DNA from: Leucoraja ocellata
Taxonomy: Eukaryota
DNA: 64,000 nucleotides
NCBI GenBank assembly: GCA_036785375.1
Contig: JAWMAR010000603.1
Span: 558,001 to 622,000, forward strand
Direction of reading: 5' to 3'
The notes beneath the pieces are model-generated. The model did no database searches, was not told the origin of the DNA, and saw only the letters and a program-made list of their open reading frames with translations. Below, in pieces: positions 1 to 61,820 of this stretch (the first letter of the stretch is position 1; each line of letters starts with the position of its first letter). The position numbers and the translations under genes were made by a program.

Positions 1-2136
1 AATTTAAAGATTGCATGGATGAACTACAACAATTGTTCATCCCAGTTTGGCAAAAGAATAAATCGGGGACGGTAGTGCATCCGTGGATAACAAGGGAAAT
101 CAGGGATAGAATCAAAACAAAAGATGAAGCATACAAATTAGCCAGAAAAAGCAGCCTACCAGAGGACTGGGAGAAATTCAGAGTCCAGCAGAGGAGGACA
201 TAGGGGTTAATTAGGAAAGGGAAAATAGATTATGAAAGAAAACTGGCAGGGAACATAAAAACTGACTGCAAAGGTTTTTATAGATATGTGAAGAGAAAAA
301 GATTAGTTAAAACAAATGTGGGTCCCTTGCCGTCAGAAACAGGTGAATTGATCATGGGGAACAAGGACATGGCAGACCAATTGAATAACTACTTTGGTTC
401 TGTCTTCACTAAGGAAGACATAAATAATCTACCGGAAATAGCAGGGGACCGGGGATCAAATGAGATGGAGGAACTGAGTGAAATCCAGGTTAGCCGGTAA
501 GTGGTGCTAGGTAAATTGAATGGATTAAAGGCCAATAAATCCCCAGGGCCAGATAGGCTGCATCCCAGAATACTTAAGGAAGTAGCCCCAGAAATAGTGG
601 ATGCATTAGTGATAATTTTTCAAAACTCTTTAGATTCTGGAGTAGTTCCTGAGGATTGGAGGGTAGCTAATGTAACCCCACTTTTTAAAAAGAGAGGGAG
701 AGAGAAAACGAGGAATTACAGACCAGTTAGTCTAACATCGGTAATGGGGAAACTGCTAGAGTCAGTTATTAAAGATGGGATAGCAGCACATTTCTAAAGT
801 GGTGAAATCATTGGACAAAATCAGCATGGATTTATGAAAGGTAAATCATGTCTGACGAATCTTATAGAATTTTTCGAGGATGTAACTAGTAGAGTGGATA
901 AGGGAGAACCAGTGGATGTGTTATATCTGGACTTTCAGAAGGCTTTCGACAATGTCCCACATAAGAGATTAGTATACAAACGTAAAGCACATGGTATTGG
1001 AGGTTCAGTATTGATGTGGATAGAGAACTGGCTGGCAGACAGGAAGCAAAGAGTAGGAGTAAACGGATCCTTTTCAGAATAGCAGGCAGTGACTAGTGGG
1101 GTACCGCAAGGCTCAGTTCTGGGACCCCAGCTATTTACAATATATGTTAATGATTTGGACGAGGGAATTGAATGCAACATCTCCAAGTTTGCGGATGACA
1201 CGAAGTTGGGGGGGGCAGTGTTAGCTGTGAGGAGGATGCTAGGAGGCTGCAAGGTGACTTGGATAGGCTGGGTGAGTGGGCAAATGCATGGCAGATGCAG
1301 TATAATGTGGATAAATGTGAGGTTATCCACTTTGGTGACAAAACAGAAAAGTAGACTATTATCTGAATCGTGGCCGATTAGGAAAAGGGGAGATGCAACA
1401 AGACCTGGGTATCATGGTACACCAGTCATTGAAAGTAGGCATGCAGGTGCAGCAGGCAGTGAAGAAAGCGAATAGTATGTTAGCATTCATAGCAAAAGGA
1501 TTTGAGCATAGGAGCAGGGAGGTTCTACTGCAGTTGTACAGGGTCTTGGTGAGACCACACCTGGAGTATTGCGTACAGTTTTGGTCTCCTAATCTGAGGA
1601 AAGACATTCTTGCCATAGAGGGAGTACAGAGAAGGTTCACCAGACTGATTCCTGGGATGTCAGGACTTTCATATGAAGATAGACTCGGCTTGTACTCGTT
1701 AGAATTTAGAAGATTGAGAGGGGATCTTATAGAAACTTACAAAATTCTTAAGGGGTTGGACAGGCTAGATGCAGGAAGATTGTTCCTGATGTTGGGGAAG
1801 TCTAGATCAAGGGGTCACAGTTTAAGGATAAGGGGGAAATCTTTTAGGACCGAGATGAGAAAAACATTTTTCACACAAAGAGTGGTGAATCTCAGGAATT
1901 CTCTGCCACATAAGGCAGTCGAGGCCAGTTCATTGGCTATACTTAAGAGGGAGTTAGATGTGGCCCTTGTGGCTAAAGGGATCAGTGGGTAGGGAGAGAA
2001 GGCAGGTACGGGATACTGAGTTGGATGATCAGCTATGATCATATTGAATGGCGGTGCAGGCTCGAAGGGCTGCACCTAATTGGTGCAGGCTCGAAGGGCT
2101 GCACCTACTCCTGCACCTAATTTCTATGTTTCTATG
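1..2136 (+). mobile_element. CR1-clade LINE (HER1-like), ORF2 reverse transcriptase region plus 3' UTR; inactive, 5' part outside window
   Basis: Consecutive ORFs give [42 protein letters not shown] and RPHLEYCVQFWSP. They are broken by stops at 201, 498, 795 and 1080 and by a frameshift at the G-run near 1207. The element ends in a (TTTCTATG)n tail. Confidence 0.95.
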
Positions 2137-13700: not shown

Positions 13701-13950
13701 ATTCATGTGCACCTCTATCCTCATCTACTGCATCCGCTGCTCTAGATATGGCTTCCTTTATGTTGGCAAAGCGTAGAAAAGGCAATTGTTTTGCCGAACA
13801 CGCACTTGATCCACCAAGGTCTAGTGGATCTCCCGATTGCTAGCCATTTTAGTTCCTCATCCCTCTCCCATAATGACCTTTCAGTCCTGGGCCACATCTA
13901 TTGCCAGAGGCCACACCCAAACTGGAGATATGAATTCCTTCATAATTCCG

Positions 13951-14256
13951 CTTCTCCCCGTTGGATTGCAACCTTGTCGTGGTCGGGGAGCTTATGTGTC
14001 TCAGTGACCCCTAGAACTATGCCAGCAGGAGATTCGACTCCAGTTAGGGTCTCCCATGCTGGGCAGGTCGAAGGGTAGAGGTGAGACGAAGAGCGATCCA
14101 CTGGTCCTCGAGGTTGTTGGTTGCGCACAGAGTTAACAACCCTGTCTCGTAAAAACAAATATGTTCCGGAAACAGCAACTGTAGAAATCAACACTAAGTG
14201 GAGCACCTTCGTTGCTGCCCTACATGCCAGGAGGCATAATAGGCAGTAAGTAAGTA
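13951..14256 (+). mobile_element. Non-autonomous RTE-clade element (5' UTR fused to 3' tail)
   Basis: 9-bp target duplication ATAATTCCG (13942-13950, 14257-14265). RTE-type 5' motifs ACCTTGTCGTGG and TTAACAACCCTGTCTCGTAAAA. Tail GTTGCTGCCCTACATGCC...(AGTA)3. Confidence 0.8.
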
Positions 14257-14344
14257 ATAATTCCGAGTGAGTAGTTTACAACCCAACGGTATGGGTATTG
14301 AATTCTCCAATTTTAGGTAACTAACCAAACCCCACCACCTTCTC

Positions 14345-14544
14345 GTATAGGAAAGAACTGCAGATTCGAAGGGATACACAAAATGTTGGAGTAACTGGAG
14401 TAATGCTGGATGCCGGCAGCATCTCTGGAGAGAAGGAATGGATGACGTTTTGGGTCAAGACCCTTCTTTAGACCAAAACGTCATCCATTCCTTCTCTCCA
14501 TAGATGCTGCCTGTCCTTCTGCGTTACTCCAGCATTTTCATCTA
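14345..14544. mobile_element. Fold-back Penelope terminal-repeat insert
   Basis: Inverted arms meeting near 14470; duplication CCCACCACCTTCTC at 14331-14344 and 14545-14558. Confidence 0.8.
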
Positions 14545-17500
14545 CCCACCACCTTCTCCCGGTATTTGTCCCCTCCCACCAAATTCCTTCCTCTGGCTTC
14601 ATGTTTTCATCTCTGGCCTTTGTCCACCCACTTGCTAAACAACTCCCACCCCCCTTCACCTGTATTCACCTATCAACCTTTCACTTGCCAGGCCATGTCC
14701 TTGCCCCACCTCTCTACCAGCTTCCTTACCCCAACCACAATCAGTCCGAAGAAGGGTCCCAACCCAAAACATCATCTACCAATACTATCTAGAGATGCTG
14801 TCTGGCCCACTGAGTTACTCCAGCACTTTGTCTTTTTTTCCCCCGAGGTTAAAACTTTTGTTTCCAGATAAAAAATAAATGGCTTTGAGGGCCAAAGTTC
14901 TTGCCACTAAAGTATCAAAACTTAAGAGCTTTAGTTATGTACCCACAATCTTACTGAGCACACTGGAAAGGATATCACTGCAAACCTCAAATATTCCATA
15001 CCTGTAGCTATCTTCAAGCAACAAGACAAATAACACAATTACTGTTGGATTACAAACATCTGCCTTTTGTCACTGTGCATATGAACAAGCTCCCTGAGAA
15101 TCAGAGTTAAACAGCAATAAAACAGACCCTTCGGCTCAATTCTTCCATGGTGCCCACCTGAACGCATTTGCCTCTAAATCTTCAAAAGTTCAAAGTACAT
15201 ATATTTATTCTTACAGATGGCAAAACCAGTTTCCCGTCTCTAAACTTTTAGGAATTGTTCTGAACAAACTTATGCTTCTGGTGTCTTTCATTACAATGTT
15301 GTGGAGGTATGGTACTGTAGAGTGATTATGTATTTTCCAATTTTCAGACAAAAGTTGATTCATGGACATTTAAAAACAAAACCTATTCAGTACTTGGTGA
15401 AGGTCTATACCCAGTTATTTTTGTGATATTAGTGATTTATATATTAAAACTACACAATTGTGAACAAATTACTTGACTTCTTTACCCCAAAGCACTGCAG
15501 GAGCATTCTCACCATGCTGACTGCAACAGTTCAACATGATGGCTCATCTTGTCTTATCTTAAACTAGCTTCGACCATTGCTAAATCCTATCAATGAGTTT
15601 AAAACAACGTTCAGCTTTGGCAATGTAGTGTGCTAAATCATCACTTGGTTCAGCGAGTTAAATAAACATATTTATTTTCAACAACTGTCGGTTTGAATTA
15701 ATAGCTTTACACCACAAACATCAAATTCATCATCTTTAAAGCAGGAAATGTTCCGGTGTTTATTAATAAACAATGCTGATCTCATTTGCATGCAGTGCAC
15801 ATCAGGCAAAGTGATGTGTTGATTTACACCATGCTGTATTTTCTCTGCATTGCCTTCTACTTGTTTTTGGCAGAATCCAGAGATATTCAGCTAATCATCA
15901 TTTAATATAATCTTAAAGTGAATAAAGACCAAGTCTAGCCTTCACTTCAAGATTTTTTTTTCTCATAATACATTTCGTGAATCACAAAACATCACAATAA
16001 CCCTAAGCCGGAAGCAATTGCTAATCCTACAAAAATACTGCACTGATTTGCATGCACTCAATTTGCATTCTAATGTACTAGGCTATATTACAGGTCCATG
16101 AGAGAAATTGCATATTTTGTCAATGCACAATACCCGAATCAGATACACGCAATCACAGAACTGCCAGAGTCTATATTTAATACCCACTCCCCAAGAGCAT
16201 ATTTTTATTTACACAATTTTATGGAAGATGCTTCTTGACTTAAAAGTGGTTGATGTCATAACTATCATTCAAAATCAAAATAGTTTTGATACATCGTTTA
16301 CATTATGCATCCTCGCACAAGGCTCAAATTCACATGCCCCCCCCCCCCAAATTAAATCTCAGTATTATTTAAGGAAGTTATTTAATTTGAAATTCAGACT
16401 ATAGCACAATTTCATTTACCGAGTCCTGAATAATCAATCAAAAAATCGACAAGCAAAGACCGATGAGGATACCATACATGACATGCAGCTGAAGCAAACA
16501 CTAGCAACATACAGGGAAGAAAAACAAGTGCAATGAAAAAGGGAACAGAGAAATACAATTTATAGATTTAATGGAGGAAAAATTGGACAAGGCTCAAGCA
16601 GACCATCATTAGTGCCAAATGGTCTGCTTCTATTGCTCAAAACATTGACATCTTAAAACTATTTGAGAAACAGCCCCTTATTATCGCATTTAACAAAACA
16701 CAACTACTTGGAACATATTGGTAACACCTTGGCACAGCTGAATTTAGGCTCAGTTTTCAATAAAGCAAGAGGAAACCAAGGGACAAAAGAGCAAATTGCC
16801 CAAATGCCTGTTAGTGGAACCGCCAATACTGCCAACAATTACAAGTTTTTCTTTGCAGAGGATAGGAAATTGCCTTGGGCACTTGCATAAGCCCAACTCC
16901 CGAAGTATTTTCATCCATCCAGCAAAACCTCTGCTGAAATGTCAAACTCTTCAATGCACTCTGGATGCCAGCAGAATATTCTGCCCCTTGCTTGTCTGCA
17001 CGAACAGCCTACTCGATTGTTAATCTAGGCAGTGGAGCGCACAGCAGGCATACCTATTCTGCAGGAAACTCACCATGCCCAAAAACAATTCATAATACTT
17101 GACAGTGCTTGCTTGGGGTGGCGTCCAGAATTCCCAAGATAAGATTTGGTTCCATCCTTGAGCATGGCAGAGTGAGCCATCAAGGAAATAAGAGCATGAC
17201 TGGATAAAACTAATTGGGCTACAAGTTCACCAGCCAGATTCTTCAATATGGACTACCATTGTGAAGGTTCAACTCTAATCTCCACTAGCACCCAATCTTT
17301 TAGTTCAAGCCTCTATCTTAGCAACATGACTGGGAAAGGTTTTAGATTTTGGATGAGCACATAGCCTGCCAAAAAAATTAATGTGCAGGTTGGGCAGGAG
17401 AAGAGTTAAAGAAGAACAGGTTGACTATCTACACTGAACATATACGAGAGGGGGGACATAATTATACTATTCAACACAGGATACTCCAAAGTAAAATAAT

Positions 17501-17756: not shown

Positions 17757-18735
17757 GGTAAGAAGGAACTGCAGATGCTGGTTTAAACCGAAGATAGACC
17801 CAAAAAGCTGGAGTACCTCAGCGGGACAGGCAGCATCTCTGGAGAGAAGGAATGAGTGACGTTTCGGGTCGAGACCCTCCTTCAGACTGAAAGTCATGGG
17901 AAGGAAAATGGGAGATATAGATGATGATGTAGAGAGATGTAGAACAATGAATGAAAGATATGCAAAAAAGTAACAATGATAAAGGAAATGGGCCATTGTT
18001 AGCAGCTTGATGGGTGAAAACGAGAAGCTGGTACGGCTTGGGTGGGGGAGGAATGGAGAGAGAGGGAATGCGGGGGTTACTTGAAGTTGGAGAAATCAAT
18101 ATTCATACCACTGGGCTGTAGGCTGCCTAAGCGAAATATGAGATGCTATTCCTCCAATTTGCGTTTCGCATCACTCTGACAATAGAGCAGACCTCGGACA
18201 GAAAGATCAGTGTGGGAATGGGAAGGAGAATTAAAGTGTTTAGCAACTGGGAGATCAGGTTGGTCCAGGCAGACTGAATGAAAGTATTCAGCGAAACAAT
18301 CGCCCAGTCTACGTTTGGTCTCGCCGATGTACGAGTGCACATCTTGAACAAAGGATACAGTAGATGAAGTTGAAGGAGGTGCAAGTGAACCTCTGTCTAA
18401 CCTGAAAGGACTGTCTGGGTCCCTGGAAAGTGTTGAGGGAGGTAGTATTGGGACAGCTGTTGCATCTCCTGCAGTTGCAGGGGAAGGTACCTGGGGACGG
18501 GGTTGTTTGGGTGGGATGGGATGAATTAACCAGGGAGTTGTGGAGGGAACGGTCTCTGCGGAAGGTGGAAATTTGGTTGAGATGGGAAGATGTGACTAGT
18601 GGTGGTATCCCGTTTGAATGATTATCTGTTGTATGCGACAGCTGATGGGGTGAAACGCAAGGGCTAGAGGGACTCTGTATCTGTTGCGACTAGGGAGAAC
18701 AAGGTTGAAGCTGTGGGGTACCGAGGAGACACATG
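17757..18735 (-). mobile_element. Penelope-like element 3' part (frameshifted GIY-YIG domain plus terminal repeat)
   Basis: ORF 18146-18340 reads YIGETKRRLGDCFAEYFHSV...DLPVAKHFNSPSH. Terminal repeat at 17757-17890. Confidence 0.9.
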
Positions 18736-20646
18736 CGAGTTGCATTTAATGCCCCAATCACCACCATAGTCATTCCATTCTTCAATTTATTTGCCTTAAA
18801 ATGGGTGCATTTGGAAAATATTTCACAAGGAAATATAGCATTAAATGCCAAAAAAAGCAAATGCTCTTGTTATTCTGGCATTGAAACTCAACCACAAAAT
18901 CAGCATCCGCAGTCAACAATTTTAATAAGGATACATTCTATAAACAACTGAACACCAATAACTAAATATTCCCCCCATTGACTCCAGGAGATTACTTTGC
19001 AGGCAAGGTTGCAGAGCACCAAGACTTTCATTTGCATGAGATTAGGATTTACCACCCTGAACCATGGACTAAGGTAGAGGCAGCAACGTACTTTTAAAAC
19101 AAAACACATAGATGTGGAAAAGGTTGAACTTTTGCCAATTTGCTGAATAACCTCACACTTTAAAATTAAATCTCTCCCCCAGGGATCACCCAGAGGATCA
19201 AATGCATTATGTTGAATAATCTCATTAGCAAAAGAACCAATAGCTTAAAAGTCTTGTTAAGAAAGGCCACAAAAGATTTTGGGATTCAGTGGCAGTGGAA
19301 CACCTGTGCGTTCCAACCAAAAAAGTGAAACGTTTTAACTTAAAAACATTTAAATATAAATACATGAAAGGATTTACTGCATTTAACATATAGGGGTGAT
19401 ACGTATGCATTTGTAACAGAAGATCTTCACTGACAGAAGATTGGGATTCAAGGCAGTGGCTGGAAATTTATACTAAGTTAAATTGCAATTTTACTCAATG
19501 TTTGAAGAATGAATCTGTCCAATATCTAATGACAGTTATTTCTTGGCATTAAGTAGCATTCCAAGTCCTCAAGCTTATACAAGGATCATGGTGAATGCAA
19601 CAATTATCCCCGAGAGACTCCAACATGAAAGTTGGGACAAAAGCTTTATTTCCCCCTAGCATCAGCAGTTGTTTTAACCTGGTTGATGAATGTATCTCAG
19701 TATTGAAATCAAACTTTAAGCATGAAATATTGGTCCAAGTGTTTGTATCTTAAAAGTTAAAAAATACTAACCACAAACGAGTCTACAAAGTAATTTTAGT
19801 CAAAAAAAACTGGATGGATGAATATACACTCAAATTTTAAGTAAAGGACTTTACTCCGTGAGTAGAAAGATCGAAATGCAGACTCTTCCTTAAAATACTC
19901 TCTTCTGTGCAAACCAGAGATCACACTCAGCACTCGGCAGAATCCTGAAGTCATCCAACTCATTGATACTTCTCAAGCAGCTGGAAACTAGCTCCCATTT
20001 TTCTGCTCTTCATCACTTGGGGGTATTGAGAAATTGCAACAGCCCAAACATCAACTAATATCAATCAAATCAGACAAGAGATCAAATCAGACAAGAGATC
20101 AAATCTGATCTATTGTCTTCCCTTTCTTGCCATAAAAGGATTGTACATTTGCCCAAATGCCCACACGAGAACAATCTAGCTATGTCCATTACAACTGATG
20201 TGCAGGTCATTCAAGACAATGAAATTACACAGAAATCTATAGACAGAACCCATCCTATACAACTTGCCTTTGACAGTGTTTGTGCGTTACGTGAGCTTTC
20301 CACAAAACTTACTTCAACTAACCTTACTTAATGATCTTCATGTTCTCATTCAGCATTTTCGTGAAACCCATTTCCTCCATTTACTTCAATTATCCCATGG
20401 AGGGTCAGATTCCACAAAACAAATAAACTGAAGATACTAGTTAGAGATCCTGAAAAATGAGAATGTTACAATCTATTACTACATTACTAGCTTAGATAAT
20501 TAAATTATGAATGTAAATTACAACCCCCATCACTCTGAATTCAGGTGTGACACTGTCAATTCTAATTAAGGGCATACTGTCAAATTCAGAACCAAAAAAA
20601 ATGCACATGTTTAAAACATGAACATCCTAAAAGTTGTACAGTTAAC

Positions 20647-46250: not shown

Positions 46251-47758
46251 AACTGATGAATGGATAGGAAATGTGTAGGAAGGAACTGCAAATGCTGGTT
46301 TAAACTGAAGATAGACACAAAATGCTGAAATAACTCAGGGGGGGGGGGGGGGACACAAAATGCATTCCCTTAATAAATGTTTCCAATAAAACAAAAGCCA
46401 CAAAAACAAGCCCTGCTCAAAACTAAACATATTATAGTTCCCAGTGATTTTCCTGATATGTGCGACTTGAAGCACATAAAAAGCTTGTGAGGATGAGTTA
46501 TATAGTATAACCACACACATTTCTGTTTATTCTTCCATAATTAGCACACCTACTGTGTCCCAGAATTATTAGAATTTTCTTTTTTTTTTTGATGCTTTGT
46601 TCACTTTCATCTATTTGTGCATCTCATTGGCATTGATTTTTCTGTCTCACAGAAAGAGTCTCAACATACAAATATTTGAGGGTGTGTGCTCATGTTCTCC
46701 AGTCTGAATTCAGATGCATATGGCAGATGATGTACAAGTGCAACAAAGAAAGGCAACACTATACATATGGAGGGAATGAAGAAGACATTCATTGGGCTGT
46801 TGAAATAGTGCCAGAATCATTCAAGAGAAGACTCATGAGAAGGAAGTGTCATAACAGCATCCTTTGCCTTCTCTTCAGGCAGTGGTTCCATCCTTTCTGT
46901 ATCTTCCTGTGGAGGCTCAAAACTCCTCCATCTCCTTCAAACCTTCACAGCAAGTCACCTTGCAAGACTTGTGTGACTATCATGAGTTTAGCCAAGTTAT
47001 ATTGTGGAAGCCCCTTGTGGTAGAAGTACGTCTGCAGTTGATAGTTAGTTGTATGTTCAACACCTACTCTGGTGTATGAATAACACACTTCATAAATGTT
47101 TCCAATAAAATAAAACCTACAAAAAAACAAGCTGTAGGTTGAAGTTAAACGAGTTCAAGACAAGATTTTTAAGCCTTCTTTCATCTCCCTCTAGTATAAA
47201 CACCTGTATAGAGTTGTTGAGTTGAATGTTCATCCTCTGTGCTGAAAATAACATGTCTAGTCATCTATTTATTATTTTTATTTCTCTCTCCAGGTCTTCT
47301 ACAAAAGGAACATTTCCAAGAACCTCAGCAGGTGCACACAATCAATAATGTATTTCTGAGCCATAATTCAAATGTTCTCCAGTTTGATCCTAGATTTGTT
47401 CTGAGTTACCTGAACCCAGCTGGTAGCAGTTGGCTATTATAATTGGCCAAGTCTGACCAAAGAGCAAACAATATAAAGGGAACATAAATTCTTTATTCCT
47501 TCTGTCCAACCCACCCTTCCCTATCTCCTCTCTGACATGCTACATGAAAGCTGTGATGATGAAATTGCTTCCTAACGTTCACTAGCAGAATATTCTGAGG
47601 TTTGTAAAACTGCGCTCCAGTACCTTCGAGGAGAGAGTAAAGAGAGGCAGAGAAAAGCAGTTGGTGCATTAACTGAGAAGTACCGCTGATTTCTTAATTT
47701 AATGTTCCTTAACAAAGACTTTGAAATTCAATGGTGCTGATGGAAGCATGCGAGTAAA

Positions 47759-48350
47759 GAGCAAACTTTACCTCCCCCCTCGACTCCGTTCAAGGACCCA
47801 AGCAATCGTTCCAGGTGCGACAGAGGTTTACCTGCATCTCTTCCAACCTCATCTATTGCGTCCGCTGCTCTAGATGTCAGCAGATCTATATCGGTGAGAC
47901 CAAGCGGAGGTTGGGCGATCGTTTCGCCGAACACCTCCGCTCGGTCCGCAATAACCAAGCTGACCTCCCGGTGGCTCAGCACTTCAACTCCCCCTCCCAC
48001 TCCGTCTCCGACCTCTCTGTCCTGGGTCTCCTCCATGGCCACAGCGAGCAGCACCGGAAATTGGAGGAACAGCACCTCATATTCCGTTTGGGGAGTCTGC
48101 ATCCTGGGGGCATGAACATCGAATTCTCCCAATTTTGTTAGTCCTTGCTGTCTCCTCCCCTTCCTCAGCCCCCCTGCTGTCTCCTCCCATCCCCCAGCCT
48201 TCGGGCTACTCCTCCTTTTCCCTTTCTTGTCCCCACCCACCCCGCCCCCGATCAGTCTGAGGAAGGGTTTCGGCCCGAAACGTTGCCTATTTCCTTCGCT
48301 CCATAGATGCTGCTGCACCCGCTGAGTTTCTCCAGCTTTTTTGTGTAACC
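47759..48350 (+). mobile_element. Young 5'-truncated Penelope-like element with open GIY-YIG endonuclease domain and terminal repeat
   Basis: ORF 47815-48141 reads NLIYCVRCSRCQQIYIGETKRRLGDRFAEH...LEEQHLIFRLGSLHPGGMN (IY-CxxC-YIG, catalytic R, E and N). 10-bp duplication TGCGAGTAAA at 47749-47758 and 48351-48360. Confidence 0.93.
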
Positions 48351-60874: not shown

Positions 60875-61820
60875 TGCAAATGCTGGTTTACACCGAAGGT
60901 AGACACAAAATGTGGTGTAACTCAGGCAGCATATCTAGATAGATGGAATGGGTGACGTTTTTGGTCAAGAAACGTCTTCAGACTGAGTCAGGGTAGAGGG
61001 AGACACAGAGATATAGAAGGGTGAGGTATGAAAACGAGATTTCAAAGGTGACGAAGCTCAAGGAAAATGTAGAATAGATCAGCGTTAGCTAGAAGTCGAC
61101 AACGAAGCATACAAAGATAAAATTTAATCAGGACAGTCAGACTATTGGGAGAACAAGGATGGGGGGGGGGGGGCTTAGCGAGAGGTTCTAAGCTGCCCGA
61201 GCGAAATATGAGGGGCTGTTCCAATTTACGTTGAAACAGTAGAAGAGGCCCAGGACAGAAATGTCACGTTGGGAATAAGAGGGGGAGTGTTTAGCAACTG
61301 GGAGATCATGTAGGTTAAGGCGGACTGAGCAGTGGTGTGCTGCGAAATGATCACTGAGCCTGCGTTTGGTCTCGCTGATATATAGCTCACACCTGGAACA
61401 GTAGATGAGATTCAAAGAGGTGCAAGTGAACCTCTGCCTCACCTGAAAGGTCTGTTGGGGTCCTTGGACGGAGTTGAGGGAGGAGGTATAGGGACAGGTG
61501 TTGCATCTCCTGCGGTTGCAGTGGAAAGTACTTGGGGAGGGGGTGGTTTGGGTGGGAGGGATGAGTTAACCAAGAAGTTGCGGAGGGAACGGTGTCTGCG
61601 TAAAGGGGTGGAGTTATGGCTTGTAGTGGGATCCCGATGATGGCAAAATGTCAGAAGATTATGTGCTGTATGCGACAGCTGATGGGGTGAAAGGTGAGGT
61701 CCAGGGGGACTCTGTCCCTTTTGTGACTGGGGGTAGGGGGAGCGAGAGTGGAGCTGCGGGATACCGAGGAGACACTTGTGAGGGCCTCATCAATCATGGA
61801 AGTGGGAACCCCCGTTCCCT
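60875..61820 (-). mobile_element. Decayed Penelope-like element 3' part
   Basis: ORF 61188-61442 reads RQRFTCTSLNLIYCSRCELYISETKRRLSDHF. Colinear with 17757-18735. Confidence 0.88.

Follow-up and report, generated by a model that had tools for sequence, protein, structure and literature searches.

Does the short repeat at 13,951 to 14,256 of the window (the whole stretch of 64,000 nucleotides analysed here) carry a self-cleaving head, and if so, which fold and which residue would make the cut? An earlier note had placed an HDV-like ribozyme within 13951..14010, with C14002 as the catalytic base. The HDV-type fold at the head of the element is real, with covarying helices and a length of about 147 bases, and the motif runs to 14100. 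Our reading, held at a probability of roughly 0.78, is that 13954-14256 is an internally deleted RTE copy whose HDV-type head likely self-cleaves before C13954 and so sets the 5' end of its RNA. The features are:

13942..13953, plus strand: left target-site duplication, exact over 9 bp (13942-50), probably 12 bp with CTT at 13951-53
13954..14256, plus strand: non-autonomous RTE element of bipartite build, 303 bp long, or 306 bp with CTT
13954..13960, plus strand: P1 5' strand, pairing with 13984-90; C13954 is +1, with predicted cleavage just 5' of it
13962..13969, plus strand: P2 5' strand, 8 bp with 14093-100
13971..13983, plus strand: P3 (3 bp) with L3 UUGUCGU, and the flipped P1.1 pair G13976-C13991, read from the sequence
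13984..13992, plus strand: P1 3' strand (13984-90), C13991 (P1.1) and U13992
13993..14086, plus strand: 94-nt P4 domain whose helices covary, including a hairpin capped by UUCG (loop 14033-36)
13998..14008, plus strand: kink-turn-like motif, bulged strand (C-stem 13998-14002, 3-nt bulge 14003-05, G14006, A14007)
14075..14082, plus strand: kink-turn-like motif, non-bulged strand (U14076 at 2n, A14077 at 1n, C-stem 14078-82)
14087..14092, plus strand: J4/2 with candidate catalytic C14087, then GAA, between P4 and the P2 3' strand
14093..14100, plus strand: P2 3' strand, pairing with 13962-69, from covariation
14101..14196, plus strand: rest of the RTE 5' region, conserved downstream hairpin and start of the ORF region, from blastn to relatives
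14197..14256, plus strand: probable RTE 3' part (ORF end, stop codon, small hairpin, (GTAA)n tail), from the reading frame
14257..14268, plus strand: right target-site duplication, exact over 9 bp; its final 3 nt depart from the left copy at 2 places
14257..14345, plus strand: host repeat of the right flank, a decayed Penelope-like GIY-YIG frame (C-terminal end), matching the end of the 47758-48138 frame

Insertion site and bipartite build

An exact duplication, ATAATTCCG, at 13942-50 and 14257-65 encloses 306 bp. Because empty-site copies of the host repeat, among them a minus-strand homologue near 18120 within the window, read ATTCCG and then CTT, the CTT probably comes from the host and 13954 is the likely first base of the element. 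This reading requires two substitutions in the right-hand duplication. P1, set by the earlier note 3 nt inside the duplication, thus probably lies 0 nt from it, with CTT matching the target repeat. The left flank (13866-13953) belongs to the same decayed Penelope-like GIY-YIG repeat as the right one. In run X4, a contig of depth 31.5 covers the element tail together with the right flank (window 14197-14321), which hints that the same insertion is present in the organism of that run; the left junction was not among the contigs listed.

The window holds only one copy. Judged on contigs of other runs (four sequencing runs from three organisms were compared, none shown to be the source animal of the window), the element is multicopy. 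Between 3,196 and 3,583 contigs per contig run match 13861-14340, flanking repeat included. In three runs the contig depth climbs about a thousand-fold, from 23-38 over 13925-40 to 40,000-81,000 over 13957-72, and drops after 14260; the pieces listed begin at 13952-13954. The internal junction near 14195 is bridged by several contigs. In run X1, a different sequence precedes 14197 in 41 contigs, which is what one would expect of an autonomous partner, and in some contigs the tail repeats go on behind 14257. About 20 majority differences and one deletion separate the window copy from related copies; it keeps every core base and lies about 7% off their majority. Majority letters at six positions (G13994, G14016, G14027, U14037, U14042 and C14082) restore conserved positions, the UUCG hairpin and a G-C pair, and among 40 of the 61 rows of the majority comparison none falls in 13961-93 or 14083-109.

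The 3' part reads ...TFVAALHARRHNRQ* ahead of the (GTAA)n tail and holds about 17 last codons of an ORF, which we take, from this type of peptide end, to be that of an RTE. The element is thus more than the ribozyme/5' UTR plus tail that had been proposed.

Relatives were collected with a search pattern that fixed only inner P3, L3, GCTT and GACRAAR, left the P2 strands and the P1 5' strand free, and matched at least 100 metagenome loci. Among the matches listed, 73 loci were linked by similarity of the unconstrained P4 region and 4 were added by eye, while 23 of 100 were dropped as unlinked to the family; the resulting 78 sequences (77 relatives and the window) form 19 clusters. Viral contigs gave 3 chance matches with the core pattern and 0 with a P4-only pattern. 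Prokaryote genomes gave 10 matches with the P4-only pattern, none of which was scored by the P4 profile, so they could not supply an unbiased set for the catalytic C.

The head is common to ORF-bearing RTEs. Similarity to relatives in blastn reaches element position ~240, with 70-79% identity to those bearing an ORF, and several relatives run from the ribozyme head into a long frame. In L013 this frame is endonuclease-like (Pfam Exo_endo_phos at E=0.002, below the cut-off; placed by the atlas among endonuclease clusters at 0.96, with the family on 16% of members) and in L009 it matches RVT_1, whereas 5 of the 7 downstream frames searched had no Pfam match. Over 210 nt, L057 and L098 match L013 at 98% identity, after which a short tail follows abruptly; judged by this alignment, L013 and the latter two are autonomous and non-autonomous elements sharing one head. 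Downstream of P2, the hairpin at 14101-14155 varies in step across L011, L013 and L072 (by eye), and in relatives the reading frame is already open here, with no early AUG, which fits proposed cap-independent initiation. In L004 (454-720, minus strand) the ribozyme head is duplicated in tandem, and the second copy keeps the J4/2 C.

Both ribozyme-headed and bipartite RTEs are known arrangements (PMC5786205, PMC6765202). The elements RTESINE1/2, WALLSI3, MAR4_MD, RTE1-N1_LA, RTE-N1_Lch (262 bp) and RTE-N2_Lch (286 bp) join RTE 5' and 3' ends in about 300 bp, as the window element probably does, and like it they have no tRNA head, a microsatellite tail and a target duplication (PMC5786205). The window family is separate from them, with no named match found; the consulted part of that paper gives no ribozyme structure for these elements.

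Core fold, pairing evidence and the 5' end

P1 (13954-60/13984-90) comprises seven Watson-Crick pairs. P3 (13971-73/13981-83) closes L3 TTGTCGT at 13974-80, which has U first and C-G near its end, as HDV-like ribozymes require, and the P1.1 candidate is a single G13976-C13991 pair followed by U.U. These parts read as the earlier note had described them. Its P2 and P4 had seemed weak, and here the fold differs: the real P2 is the 8-bp helix 13962-69/14093-100, which closes the 94-nt P4 and is also present in the MFE fold of 13951-14105.

RNAalifold on alignment A1 mispaired P1 and P2 and was set aside; since the strands of both helices are out of register in A1, covariation was judged by a permutation test that needs no register. 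When each of the 19 clusters was represented by one member, P1 scored 5.47 for cognate against 4.45 for non-cognate strands (p=2e-5) and the long-range P2 scored 5.84 against 3.73 (p=1e-5), p values that are optimistic because the clusters are kin; the picture was unchanged over 30 random picks of cluster members. The P2 drawn earlier, GGATTG/TGACCC, gave 3.71 against 3.63 (p=0.33). A best P1 with 7/7 pairs occurs in 39/72 members, which is weak alone, since 5/30 chance loci also have one. Among 23 aligned sequences the outer P3 pair is A-U in 13, G-U in 6 and G-C in 2, and the P2/P3 junction often carries 1 or 2 mismatches in relatives.

A compact ribozyme with P2 closing at ~14005-14010 and C14002 as the catalytic base is therefore very improbable. 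A helix of six pairs, three of them G-U, can indeed be drawn for it in the window copy, but it has no cognate excess, no C-R-R-A follows C14002, and this base belongs to a stem and is U in 11/66 members.

The nested order P1-P2-P3-L3-P3-P1-P1.1-P4-J4/2-P2 occurs in the window (descriptor match 13971/14087). An HDV-type descriptor, composed after the motif had been seen, matched once in 128 kb (both strands of the window), exactly at the motif and with 14087 as the J4/2 C, and not at all in 60 x 128 kb (7.7 Mb) of dinucleotide-matched sequence. Rfam models gave 0 matches in the window at the gathering score, and 24 at E<=10 over 13800-15000, none overlapping the motif. The earlier note had set a nested double pseudoknot of HDV type at the start of a non-autonomous RTE, and the descriptor match and the covariation of P1 and P2 support it.

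That the helices pair by chance in a GC-rich repeat head, no fold being shared, would accord with the absence of an Rfam match and with the unremarkable folding stability of the window copy (z=-1.25 over 13951-14105). However, P1, P2 and P4 covary and the descriptor control gave 0 in 7.7 Mb. We regard this explanation as scarcely credible and, because of the covariation, as already refuted, unless a tree-aware test (R-scape) removes that covariation.

Copy 5' ends coincide with P1 +1. Conservation begins there in 5/5 multi-copy clusters, and duplications of at least 9 bp were found in 12 of 59 distinct relatives, 7 of them ending exactly at the preset +1; the chance of 7/12 at one of 14 positions is 5e-6, and a shifted control zone gave 3/58 duplications. 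In L094 and L056 the duplication abuts the C that starts their best P1. The other three stop earlier, one at -1 and a pair at -3 or -4, an AT run among the pair. In total the duplication stands directly before a C at P1 +1 in 9/12, and all nine copies begin with this C, so that the link between copy ends and P1 on which the earlier proposal hung is found in the relatives as well.

P4 domain and candidate active site

For P4 we used a hand-picked alignment of 23 of the 78 sequences (18/19 clusters). Paired changes on both sides occur in 14 of 25 named pairs, 4 of which were set by the search pattern, and the both-side changes number 42 cells against 15.2 in shuffles (0/500). The kink-turn-like motif has a covarying 5-bp C-stem, 13998-14002/14078-82, in which 4 or 5 of the 5 pairs are formed in 63/66 distinct members. 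Past the 3-nt bulge, the predicted pairs are G14006.A14077 and A14007.U14076. Among the 66 distinct members, 2n-1n is UA in 48, GA in 13, CA in 1 and other in 4, and 1b-2b is GA in 38, AA in 25 and other in 3; by cluster, GA leads in 17/19, with one large cluster AA and one mis-indexed through an insertion.

Kt-23 of Thermus thermophilus likewise has a 3-nt bulge, G.A and then A.U at 2b.2n (PMC2790904), but 3b.3n is a C-G pair in the window motif. As C-G at this position has been linked to no folding in ions alone (PMC4382518), a kink-turn in P4 would by analogy need protein to fold, and protein may bind at the predicted turn.

Five relatives (L022, L031, L072, L075 and L016) are natural deletions of the inner P4 hairpin, 14-26 nt shorter; they keep P1, P2 and the kink-turn-like motif, which marks the hairpin as dispensable. 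The tRNA-like GATTCGACTCC at 14031-41 was considered as a B box and rejected, being the decayed UUCG hairpin. Twister variants have been reported in the RTE Perere-3 (PMC8501958), and a twister-like reading of P4 made by eye was dropped once P2 and J4/2 turned up beyond P4.

C14087 is the predicted general acid, judging from its place in J4/2; in some copies it may have undergone CpG decay. C14002, in the role formerly given to it, is instead a stem base, pairing with G14078 in 23/23 aligned sequences (19 C-G, 4 U-G) and in 64/66 distinct members. A C14002U mutant, suggested earlier as the control for a cleavage assay, would do no more than replace C-G by U-G in a stem, as 11/66 members do naturally.

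The window L3 (U..CG) and J4/2 (C-R-R-A) match elements of a published descriptor (PMC6326823). Our pattern prescribed L3, the G-C-U-U behind P1 and GAC-R-AA-R, and hence their invariance in the 77 relatives is no evidence. Repbase RTE/BovB consensuses (PMC5786205 supplement) were not pattern-chosen, although they were aligned to a horse SINE and similarity to it is a milder filter. By eye, G-A-C-N-A-A is kept in 14/14 of the alignments covering it, the base after the catalytic C being U in several. L3 recurs in RTE-3_Crp, RTE-14_Lch and RTE1-N1_LA, while RTE-1_OAf has A for G. RTE1-N1_LA, again by eye, has the same P1-P3-L3-P1.1-P2 order, with P1, P3 with both inner pairs changed, an identical L3, C after P1 and a 6-bp P2. 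Recognisably the same head is present in RTE-3_Crp, RTE-14_Lch, RTE-4_PM, RTE-7_PM, RTE-60_LMi, RTE-3_MD and BovB; RTE-3_Crp and RTE-14_Lch share L3 and its flanks with the window, and several of the 5' ends share the bulge-GA/GA motif and GAC-N-AA. In contrast to these heads, 2n is U here, not G, and the P1 and P2 sequences differ. RTE-1_MD has been used for gene writing, with UTRs optimised empirically (PMC13708176).

The published HDV-like ribozymes at RTE 5' ends (PMC5786205, PMC6765202), as far as these two papers describe them, resemble the window head in the 7-bp P1, 3-bp P3, L3 U..CG and J4/2 C-R-A-A, and in that P1 +1 is the element 5' end. They differ from it in that the window has C-G at +1, a single G-C P1.1, a 94-nt P4 with the kink-turn-like motif and no Rfam match. 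The +1 base, C in place of the usual G as the earlier note had remarked, forms a C-G pair here and in 9/9 relatives whose duplication abuts +1, against the G1-Y rule; P1.1 has reversed polarity, the G of L3 (G13976) facing the C after P1 (C13991), against the standard L3 C-G. The CPEB3 ribozyme shares with the window head a 7-nt L3 (UUNNCGU) and a P1.1 of one pair, after which comes a U.U-like pair. The window head differs in the reversed P1.1, the C at +1 and the long P4.

Full activity of HDV requires G1-U37 (PMC1874588), and the standard descriptor admits only G1-Y and a P1.1 of two C-G pairs (PMC6326823). As it departs from these two features, we file the head as a variant, not a plain member, of the HDV-like ribozymes. 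The combination of C+1, flipped P1.1 and kink-turn was found neither in Rfam nor in the literature searched (Ruminski 2011, the likeliest place, lay outside the search); the consulted parts of PMC8191799 and of a 2026 preprint on drz-Agam-1-3 do not contain it, and the PMC7245038 supplements gave no match for two motifs.

The fold could be kept for another purpose: a head that cleaves poorly or not at all may serve as a protective, translation-initiating or protein-binding 5' module, with an internal Pol II promoter setting +1. The C-G at the cleavage site and the single flipped P1.1 pair, which break active-site rules, speak for this, as do the conservation of the long P4 far beyond catalytic need and the lack of a pile of RNA starts. 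However, RTE consensuses of independent origin retain L3 and C-N-A-A, the 5' end lies exactly at P1 +1, where HDV-like ribozymes cut (the first base of P1; PMC4908430), and R2 ribozymes tolerate broad variation of the core (PMC3774820). We consider such a module unlikely, though it deserves more weight than the other alternatives, and retain self-cleavage before C13954 as the preferred reading.

Proposed mobilisation and neighbouring elements

Under self-cleavage, a transcript entering from upstream of the element would fold the ribozyme head, C14087 would act as the general acid and the RNA would be cut just before C13954. The RNA freed in this way could be reverse-transcribed in trans by the protein of an autonomous RTE and copied back into the genome.

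The element had been called promoter-less and may be so; no exact Pol III A or B box occurs in 13901-14300. Its release from host transcripts, proposed with it, drew no backing from a poly(A) RNA run of another organism, a library poorly suited to the purpose: in the 6% of the run that was read, 206 reads lay on both strands and formed no pile of 5' ends. Nor was a host gene found in the window, where short host exons would escape the Pfam frame scan.

Five duplication-flanked relatives (L016, L037, L054, L064 and L094) contain the 5' RTE part only, from P1 +1 to 270-375 nt downstream. They are collinear with the ORF-bearing L011 to differing end points and have no RTE tail, which suggests that an RNA with the 5' module alone can be retrotransposed.

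A wider proposal, which we put forward tentatively, is that the BovB/RTE1 branch carries an undescribed delta-ribozyme subclass: it would cut before C on a flipped C-G/G-C platform outside the standard descriptors, its long P4 would hold a protein-dependent kink-turn loading an L7Ae-family host protein or the RTE protein, and the 5' module alone would be enough for mobilisation.

For the head common to many animal RTE/BovB elements, on which the literature at hand goes no further than a ribozyme predicted for several families, the analysis provides a corrected, testable structure, and the conserved predicted kink-turn is a concrete candidate protein-binding site. Should the head cleave, the current G1-Y and C-G P1.1 rules would prove too restrictive, and an abundant class would be escaping descriptor searches. 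Cleavage would also explain the ready spawning of promoter-free bipartite SINEs by RTEs, a question left open in PMC5786205.

Among 89 stop-free frames of at least 85 residues in the window, Pfam matched only two RVT_1 pieces and one GIY-YIG. The former correspond to broken RVT_1 frames of a LINE at the left end of the window (798-1472, plus strand). The latter is an open, Penelope-like GIY-YIG endonuclease frame at 47758-48138 (plus strand; E=4e-4, below the cut-off); pieces akin to it occupy 18089-18739 and 61189-61782. An exact hammerhead core (CTGANGA...CGAAA) occurs six times, at window 33206, 37041, 37059, 40434, 48257 and 60185, in a repeat family that comes after Penelope-like GIY-YIG frames. 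Decayed copies of this family occur at 14345-14540 and 14743-14839, and 14415-14511 is a 39-bp near-perfect inverted repeat belonging to it; with these copies beside it, the RTE element adjoins a second ribozyme-bearing retroelement.
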